Shown: positions 1 to 39,794 of the stretch, piece by piece
Layout of the letters: the number at the start of each line of letters is the position of its first letter
Numbering within the stretch: the stretch's first letter is position 1
Origin: a virus
Strand: one strand, 5' to 3'
UHGV virus genome: UHGV-0220445
DNA length: 39,794 nt
The notes under the pieces: model-generated
What the model was told of the DNA's origin: nothing
The model's input: only the letters and a program-made list of their open reading frames with translations
Databases searched by the model: none
Position numbers and translations under genes: made by a program

Positions 1-136
1 ACCCCCTTGTAATGCTTGGGGGAATAGCCCCGTCGATGATTCATGAGGAATGATTTTCCGAATTGGAACTGCAATTTTCCATAGAGATGTTGCAGTTACA
101 ATTTCTATTGCTCGTCTACAATCACCGTTAAAAGGC
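1..136. repeat. Inverted repeat IR1, left arm (136 bp, perfect reverse complement of 463-598)
   Basis: Direct comparison: rc(1..136) equals 463..598 base for base; repeat abuts window edge so full extent is unknown. Confidence 0.9.
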
Positions 137-398
137 TAATATCATCTTCATCAATCCACTGAGTAATACCAGCAATACAATCTTTGTAGACAATATCAAC
201 TACTTTACCAACAAGTGAATCAATTCTATCAAATAGCTTCTTACCAATGAATAATCTCTCAACAATATTACCTTGAAGATCATTACAATCTACTAGATAA
301 CGCTCTGAAAAATCATCAGTAGCTTTAAGAACACTAATACTATTCAATACAACTGCATTCAACTTCTTAGTTTCCGGTGCATTAATTAAAGTATTCAT
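105..398 (-). CDS. Hypothetical small protein (97 aa) whose 3' third lies inside IR2/IR1
   Basis: ORF track; weak ribosome-binding site; coding status uncertain. Confidence 0.3.
   Translation of the reverse strand: MNTLINAPETKKLNAVVLNSISVLKATDDFSERYLVDCNDLQGNIVERLFIGKKLFDRIDSLVGKVVDIVYKDCIAGITQWIDEDDISLLTVIVDEQ
137..218. repeat. Inverted repeat IR2, left arm (82 bp, perfect reverse complement of 613-694)
   Basis: rc(137..218) equals 613..694; flanking bases 136/695 and 219/612 mismatch, so IR2 has a different symmetry centre from IR1. Confidence 0.9.
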
Positions 399-462
399 AA
401 CACAAATAGCAATTACCTTTACATTGCGAGGTTCTAATTATTATTAATTGAATTAATTCCAT

Positions 463-598
463 GCCTTTTAACGGTGATTGTAGACGAGCAATAGAAATTG
501 TAACTGCAACATCTCTATGGAAAATTGCAGTTCCAATTCGGAAAATCATTCCTCATGAATCATCGACGGGGCTATTCCCCCAAGCATTACAAGGGGGT
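463..598. repeat. Inverted repeat IR1, right arm
   Basis: Perfect reverse complement of 1..136. Confidence 0.9.
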
Positions 599-612
599 GC
601 TGTCGTATAAGG

Positions 613-694
613 TCACTTGTTGGTAAAGTAGTTGATATTGTCTACAAAGATTGTATTGCTGGTATTACTCAGTGGATTGATGAAGATGATATTA
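613..694. repeat. Inverted repeat IR2, right arm
   Basis: Perfect reverse complement of 137..218; encodes the same 27-aa peptide SLVGKVVDIVYKDCIAGITQWIDEDDI as the minus-strand ORF 105..398. Confidence 0.9.
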
Positions 695-998
695 ACGAAG
701 AAGTTCGATTTCATACTGTAGATCATAAGCAAGTTGTTGATATTGTTAAAATTAATGATATTAATCTATTGATTGCTTGTATTAAAGCTGGTATGAAAGA
801 TATGTATAATGATTTAAAATTATTGAATCAATGAGAATTACTAGAGTTATACCTGGCACCACGTAAAATGCGCTTCGGTATCTCCGAAGGCATGGTGATG
901 GCTGCTGGCCCTGGCGGAAAAGATATCTTCCTGTTAAGCCCGGATGCTGGTGCTAAACCTGGCCACCAGGTTAAGTAATTAAACAACCTCTCTTCGCA

Positions 999-1127: not shown

Positions 1128-1139
1128 GGAGTGGTTGAA

Positions 1140-1439
1140 ATGTTGAACATTACCCAAGCCTACCAGGTGGCATTGATCAGCTCATCTCATACATCAGAGG
1201 AAGATGCTCGCCGGTTCATGATCGCAAGCAATGAGCTGGATTGGGTTTCACAAATTGACGGCGGTTGTATTGTCCACGCCGGGTTACAGGATGATGTCTG
1301 GAAAGAGGACTTGCGTCGATATGGTATATCCGAAGGCGCGATTGCTAACATTCAGAAAGTACTTGATGTAGGCTTTGACTCTGTACATTTTGATTGTGGT
1401 GCACCGGTCGTTGAAGGGCTTGAGTGCTGGAACTGGTAA
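1140..1439 (+). CDS. Hypothetical early protein (~99 aa)
   Basis: ORF track (1131..1439); ATG at 1140 is 8 nt after SD ggag. Confidence 0.5.
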   Translation: MLNITQAYQVALISSSHTSEEDARRFMIASNELDWVSQIDGGCIVHAGLQDDVWKEDLRRYGISEGAIANIQKVLDVGFDSVHFDCGAPVVEGLECWNW

Positions 1440-1484
1440 CAGATATTAAAGCATTGGTAGTTTGTTTTTAGGATTATCAAAGAA

Positions 1485-2219
1485 ATGAAAAAGTTGAAAA
1501 GTTTAGAAATCCCTGGAACTGGTTATAAATTCTTTATGGACAACGCGGAGTGTGCACCTAACGCGTTGGAAAAAATACAAAGTCTTATCAACAGCCTTAC
1601 TGAAGAAGCGAAAGAACTGAAGAGCGAGGCGACAAAGGACAATACAGCTAAAATCCAATGCTTAAATCTCGTCTCTTATTGTTTATATCAAGTATCCAAA
1701 ACACTGATTAAAGGCAATATCTATTACGACGATGAAGACACCTCGACACCTGAAGAAAAAGATAGCGATGAAGAACTCTACGAAGATATCTCTACTAGTG
1801 CGGGTCACGCTGCCTTCGATGCTATGGGTGAATCGTCAGGCATCAGATCGTTTGTTGAACAGAACAATTCGACAATAATGATTGAGTACTGTGAACAAAC
1901 AAGCTCCAAGGCCATACATGTTCTTCACGATGTTGCTGCAGGGGTTCGCTGTGAGGCTGAAGCGGTCAGAAAAGATGTATTTGGTGCAGACAGTAATACC
2001 GTGAAAGCGTTTATCAACAGTGCTCTGCTAAATTCTTACTCAAACCTTATAGTCAATGCGGCACTATGCGCAAATTCAGGTGAAGAACACATTGTCATAA
2101 CTGAAACCAAACATGAGCATCAACAGTCACCAACCATAGAAGAGGTAACTGCATTGGCTATCAAACAGGCGAGTGAAATTAGTGATGAAATTCTCTCTCT
2201 GCTAAACAAAACTAAGTAA
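1485..2219 (+). CDS. Hypothetical protein (244 aa) with acidic stretch
   Basis: ORF track; acidic segment YYDDEDTSTPEEKDSDEELYEDI; no family recognised. Confidence 0.5.
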   Translation: MKKLKSLEIPGTGYKFFMDNAECAPNALEKIQSLINSLTEEAKELKSEATKDNTAKIQCLNLVSYCLYQVSKTLIKGNIYYDDEDTSTPEEKDSDEELYEDISTSAGHAAFDAMGESSGIRSFVEQNNSTIMIEYCEQTSSKAIHVLHDVAAGVRCEAEAVRKDVFGADSNTVKAFINSALLNSYSNLIVNAALCANSGEEHIVITETKHEHQQSPTIEEVTALAIKQASEISDEILSLLNKTK

Positions 2220-2299
2220 GACATTGATAATGGCGGTCACAATTTGATTCTTTTCTATAAGAATCCGTTGATCGCCACTACTCCCCTTCCATACCCGCA

Positions 2300-3110
2300 A
2301 TCACATCCTTAAATATCAATAAGTTATAGTTGTTTATACAATCAAGAAAACAACTGAATAACAGATCAACGAAACATCAACGCTTTCACCCGATTTGGTC
2401 TAAAAAATTGACGTTTTCACACATCACTGCTTATACCCGTAATTCTACGCAGCAGACAGCGCCACAGCGTCCAATTTTCACCACAGACGACCCAACACAC
2501 TACCAACAAAAACACACGCTCAAAATCGCTCCCGTTGCGTTACACAACCATATAAACAACTTATTTTCAGGTATAACGAAACAACTAAATAACACATATG
2601 CCATTTCCAAAAACAACCAACCTCTTTATGGCAGGCTACCGAAAAGACCCACCTCTTCTCCCCAGGCTACCGGACAACCAACCTAACTTTCACAGGCAAT
2701 CCGAAAAACATTCATACGCGCGATACCCACGATACGCCATTCCCCCAAATAGCGAAGCACACCAGAATCACTGAAACCCCCAACGAAGCCTGTAACCGCA
2801 AGGATTCTCTCAATCCCAAAAGACACGAAACATAACAATCACGGGAAACGCCATTACCCAATACACGAATAACTACAAAAGCCTTTCACACTCCAGACAA
2901 ACAACTCAAACACAATAACGAAAGCAATCGCCCACCTGCCATTACTCCATAGACGGAGAAGAACAATCACCAAAACGACGAGAACACCCCATAGAAGAAC
3001 CACCGCAAAACTAACGAAACCACATACACCGACAGGGAAAACAACACACCCAATTCACCAACAGAATTAGTCGCCGTATAGAACGTTCTGGAAGGAGTGA
3101 GCATTAACGC
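2300..3110 (+). other. Non-coding tract with strong strand compositional asymmetry (A+C-rich, G- and T-poor on + strand)
   Basis: Manual count of one 60-nt row (2461-2520): A 24, C 23, G 6, T 7; same bias visible by eye across ~800 bp; only a low-complexity ORF overlaps. Confidence 0.7.
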
Positions 3111-3280
3111 CTATAGAGAGGTTGAAACAGATAAAACACGAAGAAAACACAACATGTATAGCGAACAAGACAGGTATGTATAAGTGGGGAGGGAAGGAGT
3201 GGTGTCGCCTCCTTTTTCGTATTTATTCAACTCCTGATTTTATCCCCCGTAACACCCCTACGGTCAGCCTTCGGTCCATA

Positions 3281-3411
3281 CAGGGAAAAGGCTGCATCCC
3301 GCTACAGAAACGGCTGGGTTGCCTTCGGGGAACGGCTGGGGATTTTCAGGGAAACGGTCGAGTTGCCTGTGTGGATTTCGGGAAAAGGCTCGATGCCGGT
3401 TCAGGAACGGC
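3281..3411 (+). repeat. Iteron-like array: six degenerate direct repeats C(A/G)GG(A/G)AA(A)CGGC
   Basis: Copies starting ~3281, 3305, 3326, 3347, 3379, 3402; spacing mostly 21-24 bp. Confidence 0.6.
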
Positions 3412-3730
3412 GGCGTACCGGTATAGCGAGAGGGAGAGTTGCGGCTACCCACCTGTAATGTGCGGGAAGAAGAGAGGCGCTCACGTGCAGGCGAACTTAC
3501 TTACCGCTGGATTCCCTCTGAATGCCCAGCTACAGCGTAATTGTGCCAGACAGCCAACGGGTCACAATCGATTTCAGTAGGTTTTCGGGGAGATGATTAT
3601 TCTGCCCACCAGCCACCTTCGGCCACTAAATCAGAATAATGTAAAAAGTGTACTCGGTACTGAACCTGAAAACTCACTGCCAAAACCACATTCACCGGAA
3701 TAAAATCCTTTTTCGCCTGTGCGTTATTGC

Positions 3731-3764
3731 GATAATAACACCATCAAGAAAACATGTTGTTTAA
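3731..3764 (+). promoter_or_regulatory. Early promoter (TGcGATAAT extended -10) plus leader motif caagaaaacatgttgttt
   Basis: gataat ~3731-3736 preceded by tgc; motif ~3745-3764; ATG 3775. Confidence 0.45.
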
Positions 3765-3774
3765 GGATTGCTTT

Positions 3775-4104
3775 ATGTTTGCAAATATCGACATCAACCA
3801 AATTAAGAAATTAACTCAAAAAGAGTTTGATCAGTTTTATGAGTTAGAAGGTTGGTCTTCCACTCTGATCAATTCGCGGTGGGTGCTTGAGCTGATGACT
3901 CGTGATGACGCACCTGCTTTGATGATTTGCGACATGGGTGAAGATGCTGACTTTATGGATATGAGCGAATTTTGTGTGGACACATACAACCGCAGCCAGA
4001 AGTACTACTTCACATGCGATAGCGAGAATGACGTTATTTCTAAGGTCTATCTTCACCTCGTCCAGCATTGGGACGTTCAGGAGTTTCTTGAAGTATTCGA
4101 GTAA
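3775..4104 (+). CDS. Hypothetical early protein (acidic)
   Basis: ORF track (3754..4104); ATG 3775 has SD aagga 7 nt upstream. Confidence 0.5.
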   Translation: MFANIDINQIKKLTQKEFDQFYELEGWSSTLINSRWVLELMTRDDAPALMICDMGEDADFMDMSEFCVDTYNRSQKYYFTCDSENDVISKVYLHLVQHWDVQEFLEVFE

Positions 4105-4210
4105 CCCCAACCAAAGCCAGCATTGCTGGCTTAATTTCTCTATAGCCGCAGGGAAGAACCTGCATATCGCTCATGCACCTGATCAATATGCTTTGTAGCC
4201 GTTTTCTCAC

Positions 4211-4248
4211 TGGTATTATTTACGCCATTGAGAAAACAAGTTGTTTAC
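4211..4248 (+). promoter_or_regulatory. Early promoter (TGgTATTAT) plus leader motif gagaaaacaagttgtttac
   Basis: Same architecture as other early genes. Confidence 0.4.
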
Positions 4249-4257
4249 GGAGTTGTA

Positions 4258-4569
4258 ATGAAAAAATCATTGGTTCTTGGTCTGGACAAAGACCAGAAGA
4301 GAAAAGAGAAGCCTGCACTGGTTGCTCAATTAACTTTGCTGGACATCGTTGCCAATGGAACCTCTATTCGTCTGTTCCGTGAAACAGCGGTGTCTTTCGA
4401 TAAAAACACCTTTACTCGTTATGTAATGAATGTTCGTCGCCAGCGTGGAAAAGGCTGGATGGCATTTCAAAGAATGTGGCCGGAACATCAGCTCGAACTG
4501 GCTTTGATGGAAGTTAACCGCGTGGCCCAGCAAGAAATTCAGAGAGCATCAGTGATGGCAATAGCCTGA
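4258..4569 (+). CDS. Hypothetical early protein (~103 aa)
   Basis: ORF track (4228..4569); ATG 4258 follows SD ggag. Confidence 0.5.
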   Translation: MKKSLVLGLDKDQKRKEKPALVAQLTLLDIVANGTSIRLFRETAVSFDKNTFTRYVMNVRRQRGKGWMAFQRMWPEHQLELALMEVNRVAQQEIQRASVMAIA

Positions 4570-4604
4570 TAATGTGCAAGTGGTAATTAGTCGACAGTAC
4601 GACA

Positions 4605-4631
4605 GCCCCGCCATCCTTACGGGGCTTTTTT
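4605..4631 (+). terminator. Intrinsic terminator (gccccg-ccatcctta-cggggc + TTTTTT)
   Basis: GC stem followed by T6. Confidence 0.65.
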
Positions 4632-4636
4632 GTATT

Positions 4637-4652
4637 GTAAGTACATACTTAC
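4637..4652. promoter_or_regulatory. Palindromic motif GTAAGTAcaTACTTAC (late-type element)
   Basis: Member of a motif family recurring before structural genes. Confidence 0.45.
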
Positions 4653-4695
4653 GATCATAGAATATAAAAATAACCAATACACTACGGAGAGTGAA

Positions 4696-5091
4696 ATGAC
4701 CATTAAACGCGAAAAACTGACAGTTGATGTTTACTATGCCTCTGAAACCGCCGAAGGTAAGAATGTGGCAAAAATCACCGTTGTTACGTACAACACCGAA
4801 ACTGGTGCCGAAGTCCAGGCCAGTACGATCGTGCGTAAAGGTGATGCCTCCGACGGCGAGTACGCGACTCAATACCAGTCTATTTTCGATGCAACTGACC
4901 CGCTGCTGCTGAAAATCGAGAACTACTTCCGCCAGGTTGATGAAGAGGTGTTTGAACCAATGATGAATATGGTTAACACCGTATTCGCCTCCAACCTGAA
5001 TACCAACACTACCTGGATTGGTCAGTACGGCCTGCGCATTACCTCCGGCATTCCTGCCGAGACCTTAATCCCTGAAAGCGTATTCGCTTAA
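4696..5091 (+). CDS. Hypothetical protein (131 aa), moron-like unit between two terminators
   Basis: ORF track (4630..5091); ATG 4696 follows SD ggagag. Confidence 0.55.
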   Translation: MTIKREKLTVDVYYASETAEGKNVAKITVVTYNTETGAEVQASTIVRKGDASDGEYATQYQSIFDATDPLLLKIENYFRQVDEEVFEPMMNMVNTVFASNLNTNTTWIGQYGLRITSGIPAETLIPESVFA

Positions 5092-5100
5092 TCCTCTTTA

Positions 5101-5127
5101 AATGGCGCGTAAACCGCGCCATTTTAT
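5101..5127 (+). terminator. Intrinsic terminator (aatggcgcg-taaac-cgcgccatt + TTTATT)
   Basis: 9-bp stem plus T-rich tail. Confidence 0.6.
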
Positions 5128-5137
5128 TAAGCCCGAT

Positions 5138-5183
5138 AACAATTTGTTTTCTGCCTTATCTGATTTGTGAAAATGATTTCACT
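5138..5183 (+). promoter_or_regulatory. Early promoter: motif aacaatTTGTTTtctgcc (-35-like TTGTTT) ~19 bp upstream of GAAAAT
   Basis: Sequence pattern shared with 1062-1100. Confidence 0.4.
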
Positions 5184-5208
5184 GAAGCAACTTAATAAGG
5201 AAACCATC

Positions 5209-5583
5209 ATGGGACTTGATATCTATATCGAGACACAGCCTAAAAACGATCTGAATAACGAGGCATCCAGAAAGCAGGTTGCTTACTTCCGTAAGTTCAA
5301 TGCGCTCGTTGGGTGGATGGAGCGCAACGTAGGTGAAGTCGAAAATTGTGAGCTTTTAGAATTAACGATGAATGACATTTGTTTTCTGAAGGCTCATTTG
5401 ATGCACATAAACGAAAGCAATTGCGAAGAGTACTTGCCTACCCGGGAAGGTTTTTTCTTCGGCAGTCAGGAGTACGATGAAGGTTACTGGCATGATGTGG
5501 GGCAGTTGAAAGAGCTTGTGGAAGACCTGATTAAGAACCACGACTTTCACAATAACAGACTGACCTTCTGCGCCTGGTGGTAA
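5209..5583 (+). CDS. Hypothetical early protein (~124 aa)
   Basis: ORF track (5167..5583); ATG 5209 follows SD aagga. Confidence 0.5.
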   Translation: MGLDIYIETQPKNDLNNEASRKQVAYFRKFNALVGWMERNVGEVENCELLELTMNDICFLKAHLMHINESNCEEYLPTREGFFFGSQEYDEGYWHDVGQLKELVEDLIKNHDFHNNRLTFCAWW

Positions 5584-5585
5584 AT

Positions 5586-5729
5586 ATGGGCGATTTCAAG
5601 AAACGCCTGAAGGAAAGAGCCGAGATGGTCAGAAAGCAAAACGCCTCTTCTGTCATCAGATACGCAAGGCAGTTTAGTCGCAACAACAAATCAGTTGAGG
5701 AAAAGATCCTTAGCGTAATCGGTCGATAA
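5586..5729 (+). CDS. Possible small basic protein (47 aa)
   Basis: ATG 3 nt after previous stop; followed by hairpin; below ORF-track length cut-off. Confidence 0.3.
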   Translation: MGDFKKRLKERAEMVRKQNASSVIRYARQFSRNNKSVEEKILSVIGR

Positions 5730-5734
5730 TTATT

Positions 5735-5758
5735 AAGGCCACCAGCATTGGTGGTCTT
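5735..5758 (+). repeat. Conserved stem-loop aaggccacca-gcat-tggtggtctt (copy 1)
   Basis: Near-identical copy at 6206-6229; both directly follow a gene. Confidence 0.6.
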
Positions 5759-5867
5759 AAATGACTTTTAATAACCGAAGGTTAGTTTGAAACCTGGCTA
5801 TCAACTTCCAGAACCTTTCTTGTGTATTCAGCCTGTATTAACTTCTTTTATGCCTTATCTACACTGC

Positions 5868-5901
5868 GATAATTACACCAACAAGAAAACAACATGTTTA
5901 C
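5868..5901 (+). promoter_or_regulatory. Early promoter (TGcGATAAT) plus leader motif caagaaaacaacatgtttac
   Basis: Same architecture as 3731-3764. Confidence 0.45.
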
Positions 5902-5912
5902 GCAGTGAGGAT

Positions 5913-6200
5913 ATGCTCATGACTGATTTCACCATTACCCCTAAAGCACAAAATGTATTCCTTGAATCATGGCTGGACTTGCCGGAAACAGAACAGCAAG
6001 AAATGGATCATGTGGATTATGACGAGCAGGTAAGCACGCGATTCTTCCACTTTGAGGGATGCGTTTACGACATTGCCGACTTCATGCGAGATGACCGCTT
6101 CCCTGGATGGCACGCCAGTTATCCACTAAACGCCTTTGCCATGCTGATGATCCGTGTGGGTGATTCAGGGGATACCATCGACATCGGTCTGCTCCACTAA
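5913..6200 (+). CDS. Hypothetical early protein (~95 aa)
   Basis: ORF track (5787..6200); start at ATG 5913 or 5919 downstream of promoter motif. Confidence 0.45.
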   Translation: MLMTDFTITPKAQNVFLESWLDLPETEQQEMDHVDYDEQVSTRFFHFEGCVYDIADFMRDDRFPGWHASYPLNAFAMLMIRVGDSGDTIDIGLLH

Positions 6201-6205
6201 AGACT

Positions 6206-6229
6206 AAGGCCACCAATGCTGGTGGCCTT
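6206..6229 (+). repeat. Conserved stem-loop aaggccacc-aatgct-ggtggcctt (copy 2)
   Basis: Perfect 9-bp stem; followed by C-rich G-poor tract 6236-6330. Confidence 0.6.
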
Positions 6230-6330
6230 AAATGACCATCCTGTTTCCCGCAGGCTAAAAACACCAACCTCTTACCTCCAGGCAACCGACAAACCCACCT
6301 GTTCCCGTCCGGCTACCGCAACTTTCCACT

Positions 6331-6389
6331 TTGACGCCTTATTCGTACAACGATAATTAACACCAACAAGAAAACAATATGTTATTTAC
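6331..6389 (+). promoter_or_regulatory. Early promoter TTGACG-15-GATAAT plus leader motif caagaaaacaatatgttatttac
   Basis: Best sigma70-like match among the early promoters. Confidence 0.5.
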
Positions 6390-6404
6390 GATAAGGAATT
6401 AATC

Positions 6405-6887
6405 ATGAATTTTATCGCTACTGTAAACGCACCCGCACATGGCAATATCGCTGTAACGTTCTCTGACATTGAAAAACGAGTACTTGGTGCCTGGCGTCAC
6501 AATGAGACGGTAGAACTGTCAGAACAAGAAAAATGCATTATTGCACGCGACATCATTGGCAATCGTCGTTACTCGCGGGTATTTGAGAAAGCGTATGTGG
6601 TAAATTCTGGGTTCGGAACGTTCGTCTTTCCGGTGCGCTCCGGGCGATTCTGCCAGTCCAAGCTGATTGAGTTCGCTACGCAGATTTCTGTCTGGATTAA
6701 AACTCAATCGTCGTTCAAATTTTCCGACGATGAAGCAGTATCGCAGGGGATGCGGATCGCCAACAATGCGATTAAATGCAAAAACATTACGTATACCGCT
6801 GGCGTTGACACATGGAAACTGTTTTGCGCTAACTTTATGCTGAATGTATACGCAAGCAACCGCATCCACATCCTTGATGGCGTGTAA
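6405..6887 (+). CDS. Hypothetical early protein (160 aa)
   Basis: ORF track; SD aagga upstream. Confidence 0.55.
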   Translation: MNFIATVNAPAHGNIAVTFSDIEKRVLGAWRHNETVELSEQEKCIIARDIIGNRRYSRVFEKAYVVNSGFGTFVFPVRSGRFCQSKLIEFATQISVWIKTQSSFKFSDDEAVSQGMRIANNAIKCKNITYTAGVDTWKLFCANFMLNVYASNRIHILDGV

Positions 6888-6890
6888 CTG

Positions 6891-6920
6891 AGAAGAGGGC
6901 CAGAAACGGCCCTTTCTCTA
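6891..6920 (+). terminator. Putative terminator (agggcc-agaaac-ggccct + TTTCTCT)
   Basis: Stem-loop immediately after stop at 6887. Confidence 0.45.
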
Positions 6921-6936
6921 TAGCCACCAGCTGCCG

Positions 6937-7014
6937 CAGGGAAATTTTCAGAAACGGCGAGGAACGTATTCATGAGCCGACGGGAAACGGCCAGGATTTT
7001 TTCGGGAAACGGCG
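6937..7014 (+). repeat. Second iteron-like array (cagggaaa, cagaaacggcg, cgggaaacggcc, cgggaaacggcg)
   Basis: Same repeat family as 3281-3411. Confidence 0.55.
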
Positions 7015-7436
7015 GGGGTCGCCTTTATGTAGAAAACTGAGCGGGAGAAACCCGGAATCGCGCCAGAAATTGCGTAGCGGCGCTGGGGTATCGCTGGTGG
7101 GGGGGTCAGCCCCTGGGCCATCCAGATAGCTTTCGCTATGTGATTATGTGAATCCGTGGGTAAATCACTGTAAGCGCGTACACGTTGCCCAACGTGGCAA
7201 TCATACGCGAGCGGATACGGAACAAAACAAAATGCCGATCTGCGCCGACAAATAAACGCGGATCACATAGCAAGACTAAAAGCCAATGATTAGCCATACG
7301 TTATAGCGCAATATAACGCATTTTGAGCGCGTTAATGTGTTAAGTAATGGGTATGTACTGGTAAGGATATAAAAGCGCGTCTATGGCGTTATTTTGGCGC
7401 TTATTTTTATGTTGTTGGAGTGAGTCAAAGACAATA

Positions 7437-7466
7437 AAAAAACGCGCCAATGATGGCGCGTTTTGG
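7437..7466. terminator. Bidirectional terminator-like hairpin (A-run, cgcgcca-atga-tggcgcg, T-run)
   Basis: Symmetric A/T tracts around a GC stem, between convergent gene blocks. Confidence 0.55.
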
Positions 7467-7486
7467 TGGGAGTATTGGAAACGAAA

Positions 7487-7507
7487 AAGCGCCCATAGTG
7501 GGCGCTT
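7487..7507 (-). terminator. Hairpin agcgccca-tag-tgggcgct, partial copy of the 37-bp leader repeat
   Basis: Immediately past the stop of 7512..7742; T-rich on minus strand. Confidence 0.5.
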
Positions 7508-7511
7508 GATT

Positions 7512-7742
7512 TTATTTGTGCAAACTGATTTTAAATCCCATTTCTACAAACGCTTTTAGCATTAAAAATATATCAGCGTCATTCACGTCTGCTTTTTTTC
7601 GCTCCTGGTCGCTCAATAAGTCAATTTTGCGCGTCGTTTCATCGATAAACTCGACTGAGCGCCCAGCGTAACCAGCGATCCCAGCGATGCGATTAACAAA
7701 ATATTCATTGCGCACGTTAACGCCAGCGATAAGAATAAACAT
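7512..7742 (-). CDS. Small hypothetical protein (76 aa), paralog A
   Basis: ORF track; N-terminus shares MxIxIxGVN...IAG.AGYA with 7785..8012. Confidence 0.55.
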   Translation of the reverse strand: MFILIAGVNVRNEYFVNRIAGIAGYAGRSVEFIDETTRKIDLLSDQERKKADVNDADIFLMLKAFVEMGFKISLHK

Positions 7743-7776
7743 GATTAAGCTCCTTAAAAGCGCCCATAGTGGGCGC
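7740..7776 (-). repeat. 37-bp perfect direct repeat (start codon + SD + hairpin), copy 1
   Basis: catgattaagctccttaaaagcgcccatagtgggcgc identical at 7740-7776 and 8010-8046. Confidence 0.85.
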
Positions 7777-7784
7777 TATTGTTT

Positions 7785-8012
7785 TTATTTTTCTAAGTGA
7801 ATATTAAAGCCAGCGTTTAAAAATTCTTGAAGCATTAAAGTTACATCAGCTTCATGGATTCCTGCGCGCGCTCTATGTTCTACGTCATTGATGTTTATTT
7901 TAAACGTTGTTTCGTCAACCACTTCAGAACTTAGAGCATACCCAGCTAAACCAGCAATATCATAAACAAGAGTATGATTGTTGATATTTACGCCAGAGAT
8001 GAAAATAACCAT
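7785..8012 (-). CDS. Small hypothetical protein (75 aa), paralog B
   Basis: ORF track; paralogous to 7512..7742. Confidence 0.55.
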   Translation of the reverse strand: MVIFISGVNINNHTLVYDIAGLAGYALSSEVVDETTFKININDVEHRARAGIHEADVTLMLQEFLNAGFNIHLEK

Positions 8013-8046
8013 GATTAAGCTCCTTAAAAGCGCCCATAGTGGGCGC
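8010..8046 (-). repeat. 37-bp perfect direct repeat, copy 2
   Basis: Identical to 7740-7776. Confidence 0.85.
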
Positions 8047-8059
8047 CAGATTCCATTAA

Positions 8060-8710
8060 TTACGCTTTGAAAGCATCAGCCAGATAGTTATAGAAATCAT
8101 TTTTAATAAAGCGATATTGCTGAGTACCAGCTTTCGCGCTCCCAGCTCCTTTGACTTTTTCAACAAGTCCGAGACGTTCGCAAAGATTGATCAACTGGTT
8201 GGCTTGAGTATAGCCAGCGTCCAATTTAATTTCACACGCTTTTTTAGCTTCATTCATTAAATCGAAAACAGCGCCATTAGTGAACGTGTCGATCTCGTCG
8301 TTAATCATATCGATTAAAGCGAATACACGAGATCCGGACATATCAGCGACGGAATAAACACACTTTCCAGCTTTAATGGATTTAACCAGATAAACCAGTT
8401 TTTCCAGAGAATAACTGTTAGTCATTGCATCACGGAAAAAAACTTCTGGCGCTTGTTTGCTTGCTTTGATCGCATAGTAGAAAACAGAGCATAATTTTTC
8501 GTCTTCTACAGCGTTTACAACGTTGTTGATGAAGTAAGCAAGTTTAGTGGTAGCAGCTTGCATATTTGCTTTATCTGCTTTGGTGTGCGTACCATTTTTA
8601 TAATGTTCGTTATATGTTTGAGTTGCCAGATCTGCTTTTTCGCGCAGTTCATCGGATACAATGGAAGCAGCTTCAATGATGGATTTTTTAGAAATGATAA
8701 TGTTAGTCAT
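8060..8710 (-). CDS. Hypothetical protein (216 aa)
   Basis: ORF track; no family recognised. Confidence 0.5.
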   Translation of the reverse strand: MTNIIISKKSIIEAASIVSDELREKADLATQTYNEHYKNGTHTKADKANMQAATTKLAYFINNVVNAVEDEKLCSVFYYAIKASKQAPEVFFRDAMTNSYSLEKLVYLVKSIKAGKCVYSVADMSGSRVFALIDMINDEIDTFTNGAVFDLMNEAKKACEIKLDAGYTQANQLINLCERLGLVEKVKGAGSAKAGTQQYRFIKNDFYNYLADAFKA

Positions 8711-8966
8711 GATAATATCCTTATGAAAGTTTAAAATTTAACTCAAGAAAGAAAGTGTTTTGCACTCGTTCCTGATGCGTTCAATTATCGACACGCGAAA
8801 AAAGATTGCAAGTGTTTTTTTTAATTTTTTGCAGGGACGAAAGTCCTAGAAATAAAAGCGAGATCGTCGAAGGTGTTCCCTAAATAAATAATAAATTCCG
8901 GCTTTTGACCTTATATATTTATACGGGGGAGAATTGAAAGGGTATTAAATGAATGGCATGTAAAAT

Positions 8967-8990
8967 AATAACCGGACTTAGCCGGTTATT
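8967..8990 (-). terminator. Putative terminator hairpin (aataaccgg-acttag-ccggttatt)
   Basis: 9-bp stem just past the stop of 9004..9525. Confidence 0.4.
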
Positions 8991-9003
8991 ACCCTTATAG
9001 AAA

Positions 9004-9525
9004 TTAAAACGGAAGGATTCGTTCAACCCAATCGAAGAAAACAAGTATTTTTCTGCCGTCTTCTAACTTAAGAGTGACCTGGCAAGCATCAACGCCTCTT
9101 GATACCCCTTCTATTTCACGACCGTCTGCCATGTAGACCCTTATAGATTGGTCGTTTTGATAAGCCTTGCGACATATCGCAAAAAAGTCACGACGTGATG
9201 GCTGATTAACCATCTGTTCATTGTTCAGTGTTAGTCGACCTGTGAATGAAGTGTCAACCTCTTCTATGCCTGACTCAATTGTGCTAATGCGCTCAAGAGG
9301 GAGCCTTACACGATTTGTGTTGCTAAACGGATCTGGTGTGAGGTTCAGCTTATTTCTTGCGCTCAACAGCCCGTAGACATACATGCAAAACACTTGGCCG
9401 TCTTCGAGAGTGACTCTTACAGGAAATTTTGCACTCCGCCAGAAGAGCAAGGTGCGCTCAGCATGTTCGTAGTCTCGCGGCCAGACTTCAGCCGGTATGC
9501 CGTAGGTGATGTCCAATGTTTTCAT
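9004..9525 (-). CDS. Hypothetical protein (173 aa)
   Basis: ORF track; start overlaps the stop of the upstream gene. Confidence 0.5.
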   Translation of the reverse strand: MKTLDITYGIPAEVWPRDYEHAERTLLFWRSAKFPVRVTLEDGQVFCMYVYGLLSARNKLNLTPDPFSNTNRVRLPLERISTIESGIEEVDTSFTGRLTLNNEQMVNQPSRRDFFAICRKAYQNDQSIRVYMADGREIEGVSRGVDACQVTLKLEDGRKILVFFDWVERILPF

Positions 9526-10115
9526 TCTGATACTCTTAGAGGTGTTTTCAGCAACCCAAATTTAAATTCTTTGTTACCAACGACAAAGAAGGGAACCTCA
9601 ACATAGATTTTTTTATCGACGGATTTAGAGTTCGCTGTTTTCTGTATGTCACGAACGATACGTTTTGAGGTATTTTCATCGATAAACAATACCTTTCCAC
9701 TTGTATTCCCTTCAGCCTTGGCGTAAGTAACGATAGGGTCTTCATTGCCAACCCTAATGTTTACTTGGCAACCTGTTGTAGCCATTTCATCACAGTAAAG
9801 TGTGCCGTCTTGAACTTCTAAAACAATTCCAGATGGCTTCATGGCTTCGTCAGAGCTTACATTAACGTTTTCTGGTACAGCGGTCCCGTTAATTTGCAAC
9901 CGTAATCTTTCTTTTCCTGCATTAAGTATTGTTTCTTCTGCGTTATCTGAGAATCTGAACCAGACTGGTTGAATCAGACCTCGTGATTCGTATTTTAGTA
10001 CGTCTTCAGAAGTATACATGCTGTACGTTTTTTGCATGTCGGAGACGATATCTGACAACGCATTTGCGGAAAATGACGAGAGGTATATACAAGCAAGAAG
10101 TAACGAACGTTTCAT
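9522..10115 (-). CDS. Secreted/periplasmic protein with N-terminal signal peptide (197 aa)
   Basis: N-terminus MKRSLLLACIYLSSFSANA: basic n-region, hydrophobic core, AxA cleavage motif. Confidence 0.55.
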   Translation of the reverse strand: MKRSLLLACIYLSSFSANALSDIVSDMQKTYSMYTSEDVLKYESRGLIQPVWFRFSDNAEETILNAGKERLRLQINGTAVPENVNVSSDEAMKPSGIVLEVQDGTLYCDEMATTGCQVNIRVGNEDPIVTYAKAEGNTSGKVLFIDENTSKRIVRDIQKTANSKSVDKKIYVEVPFFVVGNKEFKFGLLKTPLRVSE

Positions 10116-10200
10116 TTTTATACAGCGATTATTGCAAAGTAGAATTATAAATATCCAATAGTCTCAAACGATAAGTTTTCAACTGTAAATAGCAGACGTG

Positions 10201-10240
10201 TTTCTCTAAAAGCTGTGCGGCAAAGGCGTTGTTGCCGCAC
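10201..10240 (-). terminator. Intrinsic terminator on minus strand (gtgcggcaa / ttgccgcac stem + AGCTTTT)
   Basis: 9-bp stem followed by T-run on minus strand. Confidence 0.5.
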
Positions 10241-10295
10241 TCTGTCTATTAGCTCTTCAAGTCTGGCAATTCTGAAATTGACTAAGAATCCAATA

Positions 10296-10574
10296 TTACG
10301 GCAGTTTGCTTAGAATTTGCTCTAAATCTTCCTTTGTCATATTAGAGTTCTCATAGATGCGCATGATTTTCTCACGAGCCTTAGCAGAGACTCCAACGGC
10401 AGATGAAACTTTGTCAAATTCAGCCATTGTCATCGCTTCCAGAATGGTATTGATAACTTCAGCCTTAGACATTTTGATGTTTTTTTCTTTTAGTTTCATT
10501 TGAAACTTTCCAAGTTTGTCATTGGCCTTATCGGACAATGCCACCTGACAATAAGTTGTTTTCTTTTCGCTCAT
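10296..10574 (-). CDS. Hypothetical protein (92 aa), translationally coupled to helicase
   Basis: ORF track; starts 2 nt after the helicase stop. Confidence 0.45.
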   Translation of the reverse strand: MSEKKTTYCQVALSDKANDKLGKFQMKLKEKNIKMSKAEVINTILEAMTMAEFDKVSSAVGVSAKAREKIMRIYENSNMTKEDLEQILSKLP

Positions 10575-10576
10575 AA

Positions 10577-12136
10577 CTAATCTCGTTTCAGAACTCCAAA
10601 ATCGAATGCGCCATCAATAGGCAATACACCTTCTGCAAAGCCAGGTGTGGTGTCGATGATGTGTTTTCGCTCATAAGAGTGAGACAACAGGTATTTGTTG
10701 CTAATGTCAATGAAATCAGTGATAAAACACACGTTTGCCTGATTCTTCTTGGCTCGTAAGCCACGACCGACACGCTGCCTCATTTCAACTTCTGCTTTCC
10801 CACCACCAGCCAGAATGACCGCACCAACGCTTGGCACATCAACACCGACATCCAGAATAGTCGAGCCTATTAAAACATCTATTTCGCCAGACGCTAAACT
10901 GTTCAGCTTTGCTTGCCTTGTCGCCTGGTTCGATTCCCCATAGATGAAGTCAACTCTAAGGCCGGACTCCTTCATCATCTCCATCAGGATTTGCCCGTGG
11001 CGTTTAAGACGAACCAGAGTCATGCAATTGAGAGAATGTTGCTTATAGAGCAATGCTTCGCGCACAATGGCCTCGTTACGTCCCAAATTATACACGATCC
11101 CCAACTGATAAGCCTTTTGGTAGGCTGTGCTCATACCTACTCTAAAATTAAGGTGTTTGTTGGCAAGTTCCGCCTTGATTCTGACCTCGTCTGGCTTGTA
11201 AGCAACTTTATGATAAAGGAAGTACGGTTTTGCCAGAATGCCTCGATCAATCAGGTACTTTTCTGTGACTTTAATTTCAATTCGACCGGCCACAGCCATC
11301 AGACGCATGTTGGCTTCTGTAGAATCCTTCATGAACGGCGTGGCCGTAAGCGCCAGACGATAGTCTGCGTTCACACATAATCTGGCAATGTCATAGAAAT
11401 TAGAGCCTGAAGACTCATGCGCTTCTTCCAGAATAAGCAGAGACACACTTGAAAGGAAGCGTTTCACTAGCTCCCGACGTTTGAGGTGGTAGCTTTTCTT
11501 ATCTGGTGTCGCATCGCGTGGTGGTTCTTCGAGGAAACTTGCAAGAGTTTGAACTGTAGCGACGTTGATATGTCGTGATACCTGGAACTCACCCGAGCCA
11601 ATGACTCCAACCTTTTGGTCTTTTAACCACGGTTCGCCATTTTCGGCGCGGTAGTCGATGGATCTCTGGAAGTTTTCGGCCATTTGAAACATCAGAACAG
11701 AGCGGGTTGTTAAAAATAATGTCATTCGACCGATACGTGCAGCTGCTTTGCAGGCAACGTTAGATTTCCCGCCACCAGTAGCGATCTGCGCAATCATCAT
11801 TCCCTCTCGAACCAGTGTTTCCACAGTCTGATCCTGATACGCATAATCAGGATTGTATGGGAATGGGTTAACCGCCGGATTTGGTTTACCAAGCGCCGGG
11901 GCTTTGTCTTTGCGGATATGAACACATTTGATGCCCGCCTTGTTCAAGTTCGCCGCTACAGGCTTGGCAAAGCCAGCAGGGAACGAGTTTTTACTCCAGT
12001 TGAACATCGTGCTTGTGCCCTTCCAGTCGCCAGTCTCGACTTCGTAGCTCAACATTTGCTGCACCAGTTGCTTTACCTTGTCATCTGCGCCAGAAATAAG
12101 CGCATTTACTGCGTTAGATACAATCCGAACAGTCAT
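10577..12136 (-). CDS. Superfamily-2 DNA/RNA helicase (DEAH-like)
   Basis: Motif I AQIATGGGKS, motif II LILEEAH, motif III TATP, motif VI QRVGRGLR. Confidence 0.8.
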   Translation of the reverse strand: MTVRIVSNAVNALISGADDKVKQLVQQMLSYEVETGDWKGTSTMFNWSKNSFPAGFAKPVAANLNKAGIKCVHIRKDKAPALGKPNPAVNPFPYNPDYAYQDQTVETLVREGMMIAQIATGGGKSNVACKAAARIGRMTLFLTTRSVLMFQMAENFQRSIDYRAENGEPWLKDQKVGVIGSGEFQVSRHINVATVQTLASFLEEPPRDATPDKKSYHLKRRELVKRFLSSVSLLILEEAHESSGSNFYDIARLCVNADYRLALTATPFMKDSTEANMRLMAVAGRIEIKVTEKYLIDRGILAKPYFLYHKVAYKPDEVRIKAELANKHLNFRVGMSTAYQKAYQLGIVYNLGRNEAIVREALLYKQHSLNCMTLVRLKRHGQILMEMMKESGLRVDFIYGESNQATRQAKLNSLASGEIDVLIGSTILDVGVDVPSVGAVILAGGGKAEVEMRQRVGRGLRAKKNQANVCFITDFIDISNKYLLSHSYERKHIIDTTPGFAEGVLPIDGAFDFGVLKRD

Positions 12137-12182
12137 AAACCTCTTTCCTTAGTGCCTTTTGTATGTTATTTGGCTATTATAA

Positions 12183-12200
12183 TAAGTAAGTGATTACTTA
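12183..12200. promoter_or_regulatory. Palindrome TAAGTAA-gtga-TTACTTA in the 64-bp divergent intergenic region
   Basis: Late-type palindrome family. Confidence 0.45.
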
Positions 12201-12218
12201 GTGGATTGTAGCAATAAA

Positions 12219-12899
12219 ATGGATGTAAAAATCACGATTTTGCAGGTTGATGTTGCCAACCTTCGCCCGAATACCTGGAACACCAATTCGGTTGGTGCGC
12301 AGAATTTTGAAAAACTGAAAGGTTCTATCGAAAAATTGGGCTTTTTTAAGCCAATTTTGGCTCGTGAACTTGAAGATGGATTTTTTGAAATCCTCGGCGG
12401 CGAACATCGCTGGCGTGCTGCTATTGAGCAAGGAATTTCAACGGTTCCGGTGCTTTCTGTGGGCAAAATTAGCGATGTCGTAGCTAAACAGATGTCACTG
12501 GTGGACAACGAGCGATACGGTGAAGACGACCAAATCGCATTGCAACGCTTCATTGAAGAAATTCAGTCAGAACTTGACTATCAACTGTCTGAAATCGCCC
12601 CGTATGACGACGAAATCTCGATGGTTTTAGCAAAAGAGGCGGCAATCGACCTTGAAGCACTGGAGGCGTTGTCTCGTGGTAGTGATGAGCCTGTCGATAC
12701 CGACAAACGAGAGAAAACCGAACGTGTGGGTGCGGAACATCAGACCATGCGCTTCAAAGTAACTTTCGATGCGTCAGATCGTGTTGCAGAAACCATAAAA
12801 AACATCATCAAAGAGCAGGCTATTAACACCGGTAATGAAATGGAGAACGCTGGTGAGGCTCTGGTGTGGCTGGTCGACTACTACAAGGAGCGTATGTAA
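12219..12899 (+). CDS. ParB/Srx-fold (ParB N-terminal domain-like) protein
   Basis: ParB box-like motif ILGGEHRWRAA; ORF track 12201..12899 (GTG); ATG 12219 chosen. Confidence 0.6.
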   Translation: MDVKITILQVDVANLRPNTWNTNSVGAQNFEKLKGSIEKLGFFKPILARELEDGFFEILGGEHRWRAAIEQGISTVPVLSVGKISDVVAKQMSLVDNERYGEDDQIALQRFIEEIQSELDYQLSEIAPYDDEISMVLAKEAAIDLEALEALSRGSDEPVDTDKREKTERVGAEHQTMRFKVTFDASDRVAETIKNIIKEQAINTGNEMENAGEALVWLVDYYKERM

Positions 12900-37864: not shown

Positions 37865-37899
37865 TGGTGGAAAAAAATTTTTATATCGGTAAAAATAGG

Positions 37900-37913
37900 T
37901 AAGTATTTACTTA
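37900..37913. promoter_or_regulatory. Late-type palindrome TAAGTA-tt-TACTTA upstream of tail fibre gene
   Basis: Palindrome family. Confidence 0.45.
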
Positions 37914-37957
37914 ATGGCGGGCAAGGATAACCCGCCAAATCAAGGAGCATATTCAAC

Positions 37958-39676
37958 ATGTGGTACAGGGAAGGTACTATCACATTTACACAGGGTAGCA
38001 ATACTCTGGTTGGGGCAGGGACAGCCTGGAACGTAACAGCTAATGGTGTGTTGCCGGGGATGATCGTCATTGGCCCCGACAATAAGCTGTATGAGATCAA
38101 GCGCGTAATAAGCGATACGAATATTGTTCTCTCAGAACCTTATACCGGCGAAACTCAGTCTGAGGTTCCGTGCCGAATCATTACGACCTATGAAGGCGAC
38201 TTAACACAGTTTAGCGCGCGCTTTACAGCACTAATGTCGCGTATGTCGGCTGATTCCAAGTCTATGCGCAGTTGGTTGACTGCTCTGGATGAGGTGACAA
38301 TCGAGCGTGAAGACGGTACAGAAGTAACCGTTAAGCCGCTAATGCAGATCGTCAACGAGCACAACGAAAACGTTGAGTGGTATAAAAATAACACTGACGC
38401 GATTGATGCTGCTGGCGACAAAGCTCGTGAGGCGGCGGCCAGTGCTGCCGCAGCAGCAGAAAGCGCCAATACCGCTGGAGAAAAAGCCTCTCAAGCGTCT
38501 CAAAGTGCATCCGCTGCGGCATCCTCACAAAGTGCCGCAAGTGCGAGTGCAACTGCTGCGAAAAAATCTGAAACGAATGCCGCAGCGTCACAACAATCAG
38601 CAGCCACTTCTGCATCCACCGCGACCACGAAAGCGTCAGAAGCTGCCACCTCAGCCCGGGATGCGGCGGCCTCAAAAGAGGCAGCGAAATCATCAGAAAC
38701 GAACGCATCCTTGAGCGCCAGTAGCGCAGCTTCCTCGGCAACGGCGGCAGCAAATTCCGCGAAGGCGGCAAAAACGTCCGAGACGAACGCTAAGTCTTCT
38801 GAGACGGCAGCGGGACAGAGCGCCTCAGCTGCGGCAGGCTCAAAAACAGCGGCTGCGTCGTCTGCCAGTGCCGCGTCAACAAGTGCCGGGCAGGCCTCAG
38901 CCAGTGCCACCGCCGCCGGAAAATCGGCAGAAAGCGCCGCATCATCCGCTTCAACAGCCACAACGAAGGCTGGCGAAGCCACTGAACAGGCCAGCGCAGC
39001 AGCGAGGTCTGCTTCCGCAGCGAAGACATCCGAAACGAACGCGAAAGCGTCGGAAACCCGTGCAGAATCCTCAAAAACGGCAGCCGCATCGTCCGCCAGT
39101 TCGGCAGCGTCATCGGCATCATCGGCGTCTGCTTCAAAAGATGAGGCGACCAGACAGGCGTCAGCAGCGAAGAGCAGCGCCACGACGGCATCCACGAAGG
39201 CGACAGAGGCAGCTGGCAGTGCGACGGCGGCAGCTCAGAGCAAAAGTACGGCGGAATCCGCGGCAACGCGCGCCGAGACAGCAGCTAAACGGGCAGAGGA
39301 TATTGCATCCGCCGTGGCGCTTGAGGATGCAAGTACGACGAAAAAGGGGATAGTACAGCTCAGCAGTGCGACCAACAGCACATCTGAAACGCTTGCCGCG
39401 ACACCGAAGGCAGTTAAAGCAGCGAATGACAATGCGAATGGCAGGGTACCATCTAACCGAAAAGTTAACGGGAAAGCACTGACTGCGGATATAACATTAA
39501 CACCGAAAGATATTGGCACTTTAAATTCAGTAACGATCTCTTTCTCTGGCGGGGCAGGGTGGTTCAAACTGGCAACGGTTACCATGCCACAAGCGAGTTC
39601 CATCGTTTACATCGCATTGATTGGTGGCGCTGGTTACAACGTCGGCTCCCCACAGTGTTTACACCTGGAAGGTTAA
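37958..39676 (+). CDS. Side tail fibre protein (Stf-like) with Ala/Ser-rich repeats
   Basis: Repeats of KxSETNA/AAxSA and motif QLSSATNSTSETLAATPKAVKAA, which I recall from P2 gpH / Stf-family fibres. Confidence 0.75.
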   Translation: MWYREGTITFTQGSNTLVGAGTAWNVTANGVLPGMIVIGPDNKLYEIKRVISDTNIVLSEPYTGETQSEVPCRIITTYEGDLTQFSARFTALMSRMSADSKSMRSWLTALDEVTIEREDGTEVTVKPLMQIVNEHNENVEWYKNNTDAIDAAGDKAREAAASAAAAAESANTAGEKASQASQSASAAASSQSAASASATAAKKSETNAAASQQSAATSASTATTKASEAATSARDAAASKEAAKSSETNASLSASSAASSATAAANSAKAAKTSETNAKSSETAAGQSASAAAGSKTAAASSASAASTSAGQASASATAAGKSAESAASSASTATTKAGEATEQASAAARSASAAKTSETNAKASETRAESSKTAAASSASSAASSASSASASKDEATRQASAAKSSATTASTKATEAAGSATAAAQSKSTAESAATRAETAAKRAEDIASAVALEDASTTKKGIVQLSSATNSTSETLAATPKAVKAANDNANGRVPSNRKVNGKALTADITLTPKDIGTLNSVTISFSGGAGWFKLATVTMPQASSIVYIALIGGAGYNVGSPQCLHLEG

Positions 39677-39794
39677 TATTTGCAGAACCGTCGAAAACAA
39701 CTCCACCGATAGATCTTGCCGTCTGCAATTTCGTGGCTGTACTTGCATTACCATTCAATGAACCAGTTAATCCACCTGTAACAGACAACGGACC
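39579..39794 (-). CDS. Partial minus-strand ORF with tail-fibre-like motif, 5' end beyond window
   Basis: Translation SVTGGLTGSLNGNASTATKLQTARSIGGVVFDGSANINLPGVNT; overlaps 3' end of plus-strand fibre gene. Confidence 0.3.
   Translation of the reverse strand, partial: GPLSVTGGLTGSLNGNASTATKLQTARSIGGVVFDGSANINLPGVNTVGSRRCNQRHQSMRCKRWNSLVAW

Follow-up and report, generated by a model that had tools for sequence, protein, structure and literature searches.

A crAss-like fold-back tip on an SSU5-like phage-plasmid contig, most probably an in vitro chimera and not a genetic switch

The left 850 bases of the window, a 39,794-nt stretch of viral DNA, are most probably a chimeric fold-back tip generated as an artefact in vitro and not a genetic switch (probability about 0.9, judged from sequence comparison). 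The observations behind this reading are direct: the mapping of the tip onto a phage locus, the single-copy, collinear state of that locus in native genomes, the blunt junctions, a join that crosses phyla, and a matching fold-back at the other end of the contig.

The biological importance of the arrangement is small, and its relevance is one of data hygiene. The two tips, about 850 nt of crAss-like DNA on the left and 140 nt of inverted tail-fibre sequence on the right, create a false 97-aa ORF, a false tail-fibre stop and a false truncation of metG. Such tips could be mistaken for an invertible switch, for inverted terminal repeats or for phage transfer across phyla. They can be recognized by unfolding the repeats, seeking the unfolded single-copy form elsewhere and inspecting the opposite end of the contig.

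Bases 1-850 and the native crAss-like locus

Two pairs of exact inverted arms are found at the left end of the window. In a repeat search, positions 1-136 and 463-598 are 100% complementary over 136 nt and lie 326 nt apart, while positions 137-218 and 613-694 are 100% complementary over 82 nt and lie 394 nt apart. No other self-repeat in the 39.8-kb window reaches 100% identity over more than 60 nt, and such exact arms are far beyond chance. A minus-strand ORF at 105-398 encodes 97 aa and spans both left repeat copies. A stretch of 27 aa from this ORF (SLVGKVVDIVYKDCIAGITQWIDEDDI) recurs on the plus strand in the frame at 613-834, where it runs on into a 46-aa tail with its stop at 832-834. 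No ATG, GTG or TTG is present near the beginning of this frame, and no ORF of at least 30 aa is listed in it.

The repeat pairs, the minus-strand ORF and the startless plus-strand frame had all been described correctly in a sequence-only reading of this DNA, which also had the geometry right in noting that inversion of 219-612 would fuse the 5′ part of the ORF to the tail. From this it proposed that the segment can invert and that the alternative 3′ end is a silent cassette. In a programmed switch of this kind, a recombinase acting on the 82-bp or the 136-bp repeats would flip 219-612 or 137-462 and thereby toggle between a 97-aa and a 133-aa form of the protein. The exact inverted repeats do overlap coding sequence, and inverting 219-612 would restore an intact 133-aa ORF. 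Gut bacteria are known to have intragenic invertons that produce premature stops (PMC10028968). The likeness extends to site-specific inversion systems of the shufflon type (Hin/Gin/Cin), in that the repeats overlap coding sequence and inversion would alter the C-terminus or create a premature stop. In one inverton, that of thiC, the repeat is 11 nt long, unlike the exact repeats of 82-136 nt found here. What decides the matter is the form that the locus takes in native phage genomes.

When the 5′ part of the minus-strand ORF is joined to the plus-strand “alternative tail”, the result is an unfolded protein of 133 aa. Its 20 homologues share 70-95% identity with it; 19 cover 100% of the query, and most are exactly 133 aa long. 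Since these full-length homologues match the unfolded protein, the uninterrupted gene is the native form.

Twelve native loci (L002-L013) were compared, taken from four ENA/Logan contigs and eight IMG/VR contigs of up to 94.5 kb. Every segment occurs once per native locus, in one fixed collinear order (12/12), and the piece-by-piece mapping of 1-850 is identical on all 12 independent loci. The orientation of the locus in related phages, to which the sequence-only reading had drawn attention, is likewise fixed in every one of the 12. Self-comparison of three loci revealed no long inverted repeats, only short imperfect AT-rich matches.

On these loci, bases 1-850 trace back to one native stretch of 632 bp, present as three pieces that overlap and switch orientation from one to the next (forward 136, reverse 476 and forward 238 nt). 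The pieces and the joins that end them are listed here, with L004 coordinates given so that the 133-aa gene is on the plus strand.

1-136, plus strand: segment A, equal to L004 249-384 forward; non-coding DNA that precedes the crAss-like 133-aa gene in the native locus; matches the reverse complement of 463-598 exactly.
136..137: junction J1, where native 384 continues on the reverse strand from native 710; a 326-nt jump ahead, inverted; blunt, 0 nt shared.
137-612, minus strand: middle piece, equal to L004 710 back to 235, a contiguous block at 97.5% identity; covers the upstream region and the first 87 codons of the 133-aa gene.
612..613: junction J2, from the reverse strand at native 235 to forward native 629; a 394-nt jump, inverted; blunt, 0 nt shared.
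613-850, plus strand: third piece, equal to L004 629-866; the 133-aa gene from codon 61 through codon 133 and the stop at 832-834, then the first 20 nt of the next gene.
850..851: junction J3, from crAss-like phage DNA into an E. coli phage-plasmid within metG; blunt, 0 nt shared.

The next native gene starts within 831-850, with its ATG at 831-833 in an ATGA overlap. Positions 613-694 duplicate 137-218. The repeats are 100% identical, abut at 136/137 and have different symmetry centres because they are the overlaps between consecutive pieces of one native stretch. Ongoing recombination, which had been suggested as one source of their perfect identity, is not supported. The 97-aa ORF consists of native codons 1-87 followed by 10 codons of read-through into segment A, that is, into inverted upstream non-coding DNA, and by this comparison it would be a truncation product of the artefact. 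The 46-aa “alternative tail” is the sole native 3′ end of the 133-aa gene, conserved as the C-terminus in its full-length homologues, with no second cassette.

Overlap at the junctions was determined by comparison with the native locus, with the plasmid and with the window’s own second copies. The junctions are blunt, and the repeat ends are therefore not crossover sites. The scans for junction strings had as their positive control the native C′-B′ join, which is found verbatim in seven IMG/VR viral contigs. In these scans the J1 string was absent from the viral and genome collections, the J2 string from the viral and metagenome collections, and the J3 string from the viral, metagenome and genome contigs. 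This absence is weak evidence, because the window’s own contig is absent from these collections too.

A switch at this locus is thus extremely unlikely. The native segments are single and in fixed orientation in 12/12 loci, the self-compared native loci have no long inverted repeats, one tail is the native C-terminus and the other comes from 10 codons of non-coding DNA in inverted orientation, the repeats end at blunt breakpoints, and the locus itself lies on foreign DNA at the tip of a contig. A nearby recombinase, for which the sequence-only reading had proposed a search, was found neither among the annotated genes of the near-identical plasmid over the span of the window, nor in a Pfam scan of the ORFs at 1131-12899, nor among Pfam matches for 20 kb of native locus. 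Three of the four defining features of an inversion switch, namely native inverted repeats, a recombinase and a true alternative cassette, were therefore not found, and it is in these features, along with the blunt repeat ends, that the locus differs from invertons and shufflons.

A structured RNA or a tRNA attachment site at the repeats was considered as well and rejected: the sole Rfam match in 1-1200 was a sub-threshold sRNA near the metG terminator, and ARAGORN called no tRNA in the window or in the native loci.

The donor of bases 1-850 appears to be a crAss-like gut phage, as indicated by the size of the native contigs, the exonuclease that neighbours the locus and an adjacent gene for a BACON-domain protein. 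The native contigs are 93.8-95.0 kb long and AT-rich, and besides the BACON-domain protein they encode a large intein-containing protein and a PIF1 helicase. The exonuclease neighbouring the native locus matches crAss-like and Bacteroides phages only, among them cr127_1 (at 49%), a Rudgehvirus from Bacteroides cellulosilyticus and several records of CrAssphage sp. Bases 1-850 are themselves AT-rich, at 34-38% GC compared to about 47%, and DNA searches with them gave no match to E. coli genomes, plasmids or GenBank phages. Compared with each public native locus, the fragment in the window shows 2-4% divergence.

Little can be said of the 133-aa protein beyond its conservation. Neither it nor the 97-aa ORF gave anything significant in Pfam or PHROGs, an exact protein look-up returned no record for the 97-aa ORF, and the phage collection yielded no tblastn match to the 133-aa protein. 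An AlphaFold2 model of the 133-aa protein, based on 18 aligned sequences, reached a mean pLDDT of 39.5 and was unusable. Upstream of the native gene is a stretch of about 2.4 kb without called genes (L005 7313-9753; L004 205-270), in which GC-rich patches, for example GGGTGGGGGTCTAGTGGGGCC and ACCCCC-N11-GGGGG, stand out from the AT-rich remainder of the genome. Three database forms of 184-196 aa (P0001, P0016 and P0018) start within this upstream region, and their gene calls are probably over-extended.

The phage-plasmid body and the right end

From position 851 on, the window matches E. coli plasmids of about 105-115 kb. Collinearity with NZ_CP061531.1, an E. coli plasmid of 108 kb, extends over positions 851-39654, at 99.1-99.6% identity outside a variable region at about 7036-10326. 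In the terminase/portal region the identity is 99.7% to Escherichia phage Cyrano and 82.5% to Salmonella phage SSU5. The collinearity and the terminase/portal identity together identify the body as an SSU5-like phage-plasmid. Like SSU5 and Cyrano, it encodes a terminase, portal, capsid, tape measure and tail fibre, ParB, a helicase and a plasmid-borne metG. It is unlike them in that the first 850 and the last 140 bases are outside the normal order of the replicon, and there is no other difference of note. The features at its two ends are as follows.

851-978, plus strand: metG 3′ end, the last 128 nt of the plasmid-borne metG, followed by the terminator region.
39654..39794, minus strand: right-end fold-back, a 141-nt inverted piece from 350-490 nt downstream in the same tail-fibre gene.

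At the left end of the body, relatives carry the full 2034-bp metG at the same position, with apbC upstream (L001 3095-5128; L015 41134-44001). The possibility that an integrated element had left 851-978 behind as an att-site copy of the metG 3′ end was rejected, since the relatives have a full plasmid-borne metG there.

The donor belongs to a phage family of Bacteroidales, while the body of the window replicates in E. coli, so that the join at 850/851 crosses phyla.

A second fold-back is found at the right end. Positions 36800-39654 are 100% identical to the plasmid, and the last ~140 nt are discontinuous with it. They correspond to L014 5217-5357 in inverted orientation, set against a break at L014 5707, which amounts to a jump of about 490 nt, and the position of the join is ambiguous by 1 nt. 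The tail-fibre ORF at 37958-39676 is broken at 39654 and runs into a false stop at 39674-39676, and the tail-fibre gene is single copy. Inverted jump-ahead joins are thus present at both termini of the contig, and only there, with terminal pieces of 136 and 141 nt. The sequence-only reading had added the caveat that a repeat starting at base 1 might be an assembly fold-back. The same defect at the opposite end of the contig bears this out, and it is this caveat, not the recombination switch, that survives from its overall interpretation.

Origin of the contig tips

The most probable course of events begins with chimeric molecules or reads that would have arisen in vitro. Their likeliest cause would be a polymerase that switched strand or template on branched DNA while DNA was being amplified or a library prepared, as happens in multiple displacement amplification (MDA). 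The assembler may then have extended a broken plasmid contig into the chimeric tips, where the true path would end at sequences repeated in E. coli, namely chromosomal metG and prophage tail-fibre modules. At the left plasmid-side breakpoint, chromosomal metG matches are found in 4585 of 5426 E. coli genomes, and at the right one the tail-fibre module is matched at 99% identity or more in 399 records. Being repeated in E. coli chromosomes, both breakpoints would be typical stopping places for an assembly path.

Confidence in MDA as the specific mechanism is much lower than in an in vitro artefact overall. Of the chimeras formed during MDA, 85% are inverted joins with an intervening deletion, and proximal segments of the same molecule are favoured (Lasken & Stockwell 2007, PMC1855051). 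J1, J2 and the right-end junction resemble these (PMC1855051) in that all three are inversions of the second segment. They also join proximal segments (<10 kb) with an intervening skip, the jumps being 326, 394 and 490 nt. A zig-zag made by consecutive switches and an occasional intermolecular join, here from crAss-like phage to plasmid, are likewise features of MDA or strand-displacement chimeras. However, complementarity of at least 2 bp is found at 93.5% of proximal inverted joins in MDA (Lasken & Stockwell, PMC1855051), whereas the three proximal joins here share 0, 0 and 1 nt. Switching driven by hairpins at the breakpoints is not supported, as DNA folding of the native sequence around them gave a z-score of -0.86. 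It is also unusual for a contig to take a chimeric branch twice, with each junction needing chimeric reads in the de Bruijn path, and this counts against an artefact.

The near absence of shared sequence bears equally on a purely computational misjoin, in which unrelated graph paths would have been linked via a common k-mer or repeat with no chimeric molecule involved. Both plasmid-side breakpoints do fall within sequences repeated in E. coli genomes, and the terminal pieces of 136 and 141 nt are about the length of one short read or a large k-mer. However, the parent sequences share 0, 0, 0 and 1 nt at the four junctions. A misjoin by k-mer overlap would therefore find no shared stretch to act on, and the junctions, with their k-mers, must already have been present in reads or molecules. 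A misjoin of this kind is accordingly rated highly improbable.

Two other ways of forming chimeric molecules were rejected. Against ligation chimeras of the 3C/Hi-C type, no restriction-site motif is common to the four junctions. Random blunt ligation of unrelated fragments would hardly explain J1 and J2, as three overlapping pieces of a 632-bp locus are improbable by chance from a genome of about 95 kb.

The joins might instead have formed in vivo. On one version, J1 and J2 would be real, as a snap-back or defective product of the crAss-like phage, and only J3 an artefact; on another, crAss-like DNA would have been captured by the phage-plasmid via illegitimate recombination or blunt end-joining, replacing most of metG. 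Blunt joins without microhomology are unusual for MDA mispriming and compatible with end-joining of broken DNA, and the divergence of the fragment by 2-4% from every public native locus would place its source in a strain not otherwise sampled. Against this, the donor family infects Bacteroidales and the recipient replicates in E. coli, three overlapping pieces from one 632-bp locus would be required, and the repeat begins exactly at base 1. The joins occur in no other assembly among the collections scanned. The fold-back at the other end of the contig, within an E. coli tail-fibre gene that is single copy, has the identical geometry, and this suggests that both ends share one technical cause. 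An origin in vivo is thus given only a small chance, and chimeric tips formed in vitro are the preferred explanation.

Other features of the phage-plasmid

The metG and apbC genes of SSU5-like phage-plasmids are chromosome-like housekeeping genes. The metG fragment at 851-978, taken together with the sequence up to position 1100, shares about 90-95% identity with metG of the E. coli chromosome. Just 3′ of metG, the plus-strand ORF at 1131-1439 matches the C-terminal domain of DUF5983 (E = 8e-11).

The region at 2330-3000 is gene-poor and strongly strand-skewed, with a GC skew of about -0.45 and an AT skew of +0.43. It includes three tandem repeats of about 31 nt at 2611-2702 (AAACAACCAACCTC...CAGGCTACCG). 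Iterons or another cis element of the plasmid could lie in this region.

The variable region at 7036-10326 is 92-95% identical to NZ_CP061531.1 or has no megablast match to it, with flanks that are at least 99% identical. It includes a FljA-like gene and two ORFs without a Pfam match. The FljA-like gene, a minus-strand ORF at 9004-9525, matches the Pfam family Flag1_repress (FljA-like repressor of phase-1 flagellin) with E = 3e-69 and is annotated merely as a “transcriptional regulator”. Relatives of this ORF were found by tblastn on 832 plasmids of Klebsiella, Escherichia, Enterobacter, Yersinia and Salmonella, which are mostly non-mobilizable and, among the best matches listed, about 105-166 kb in size.
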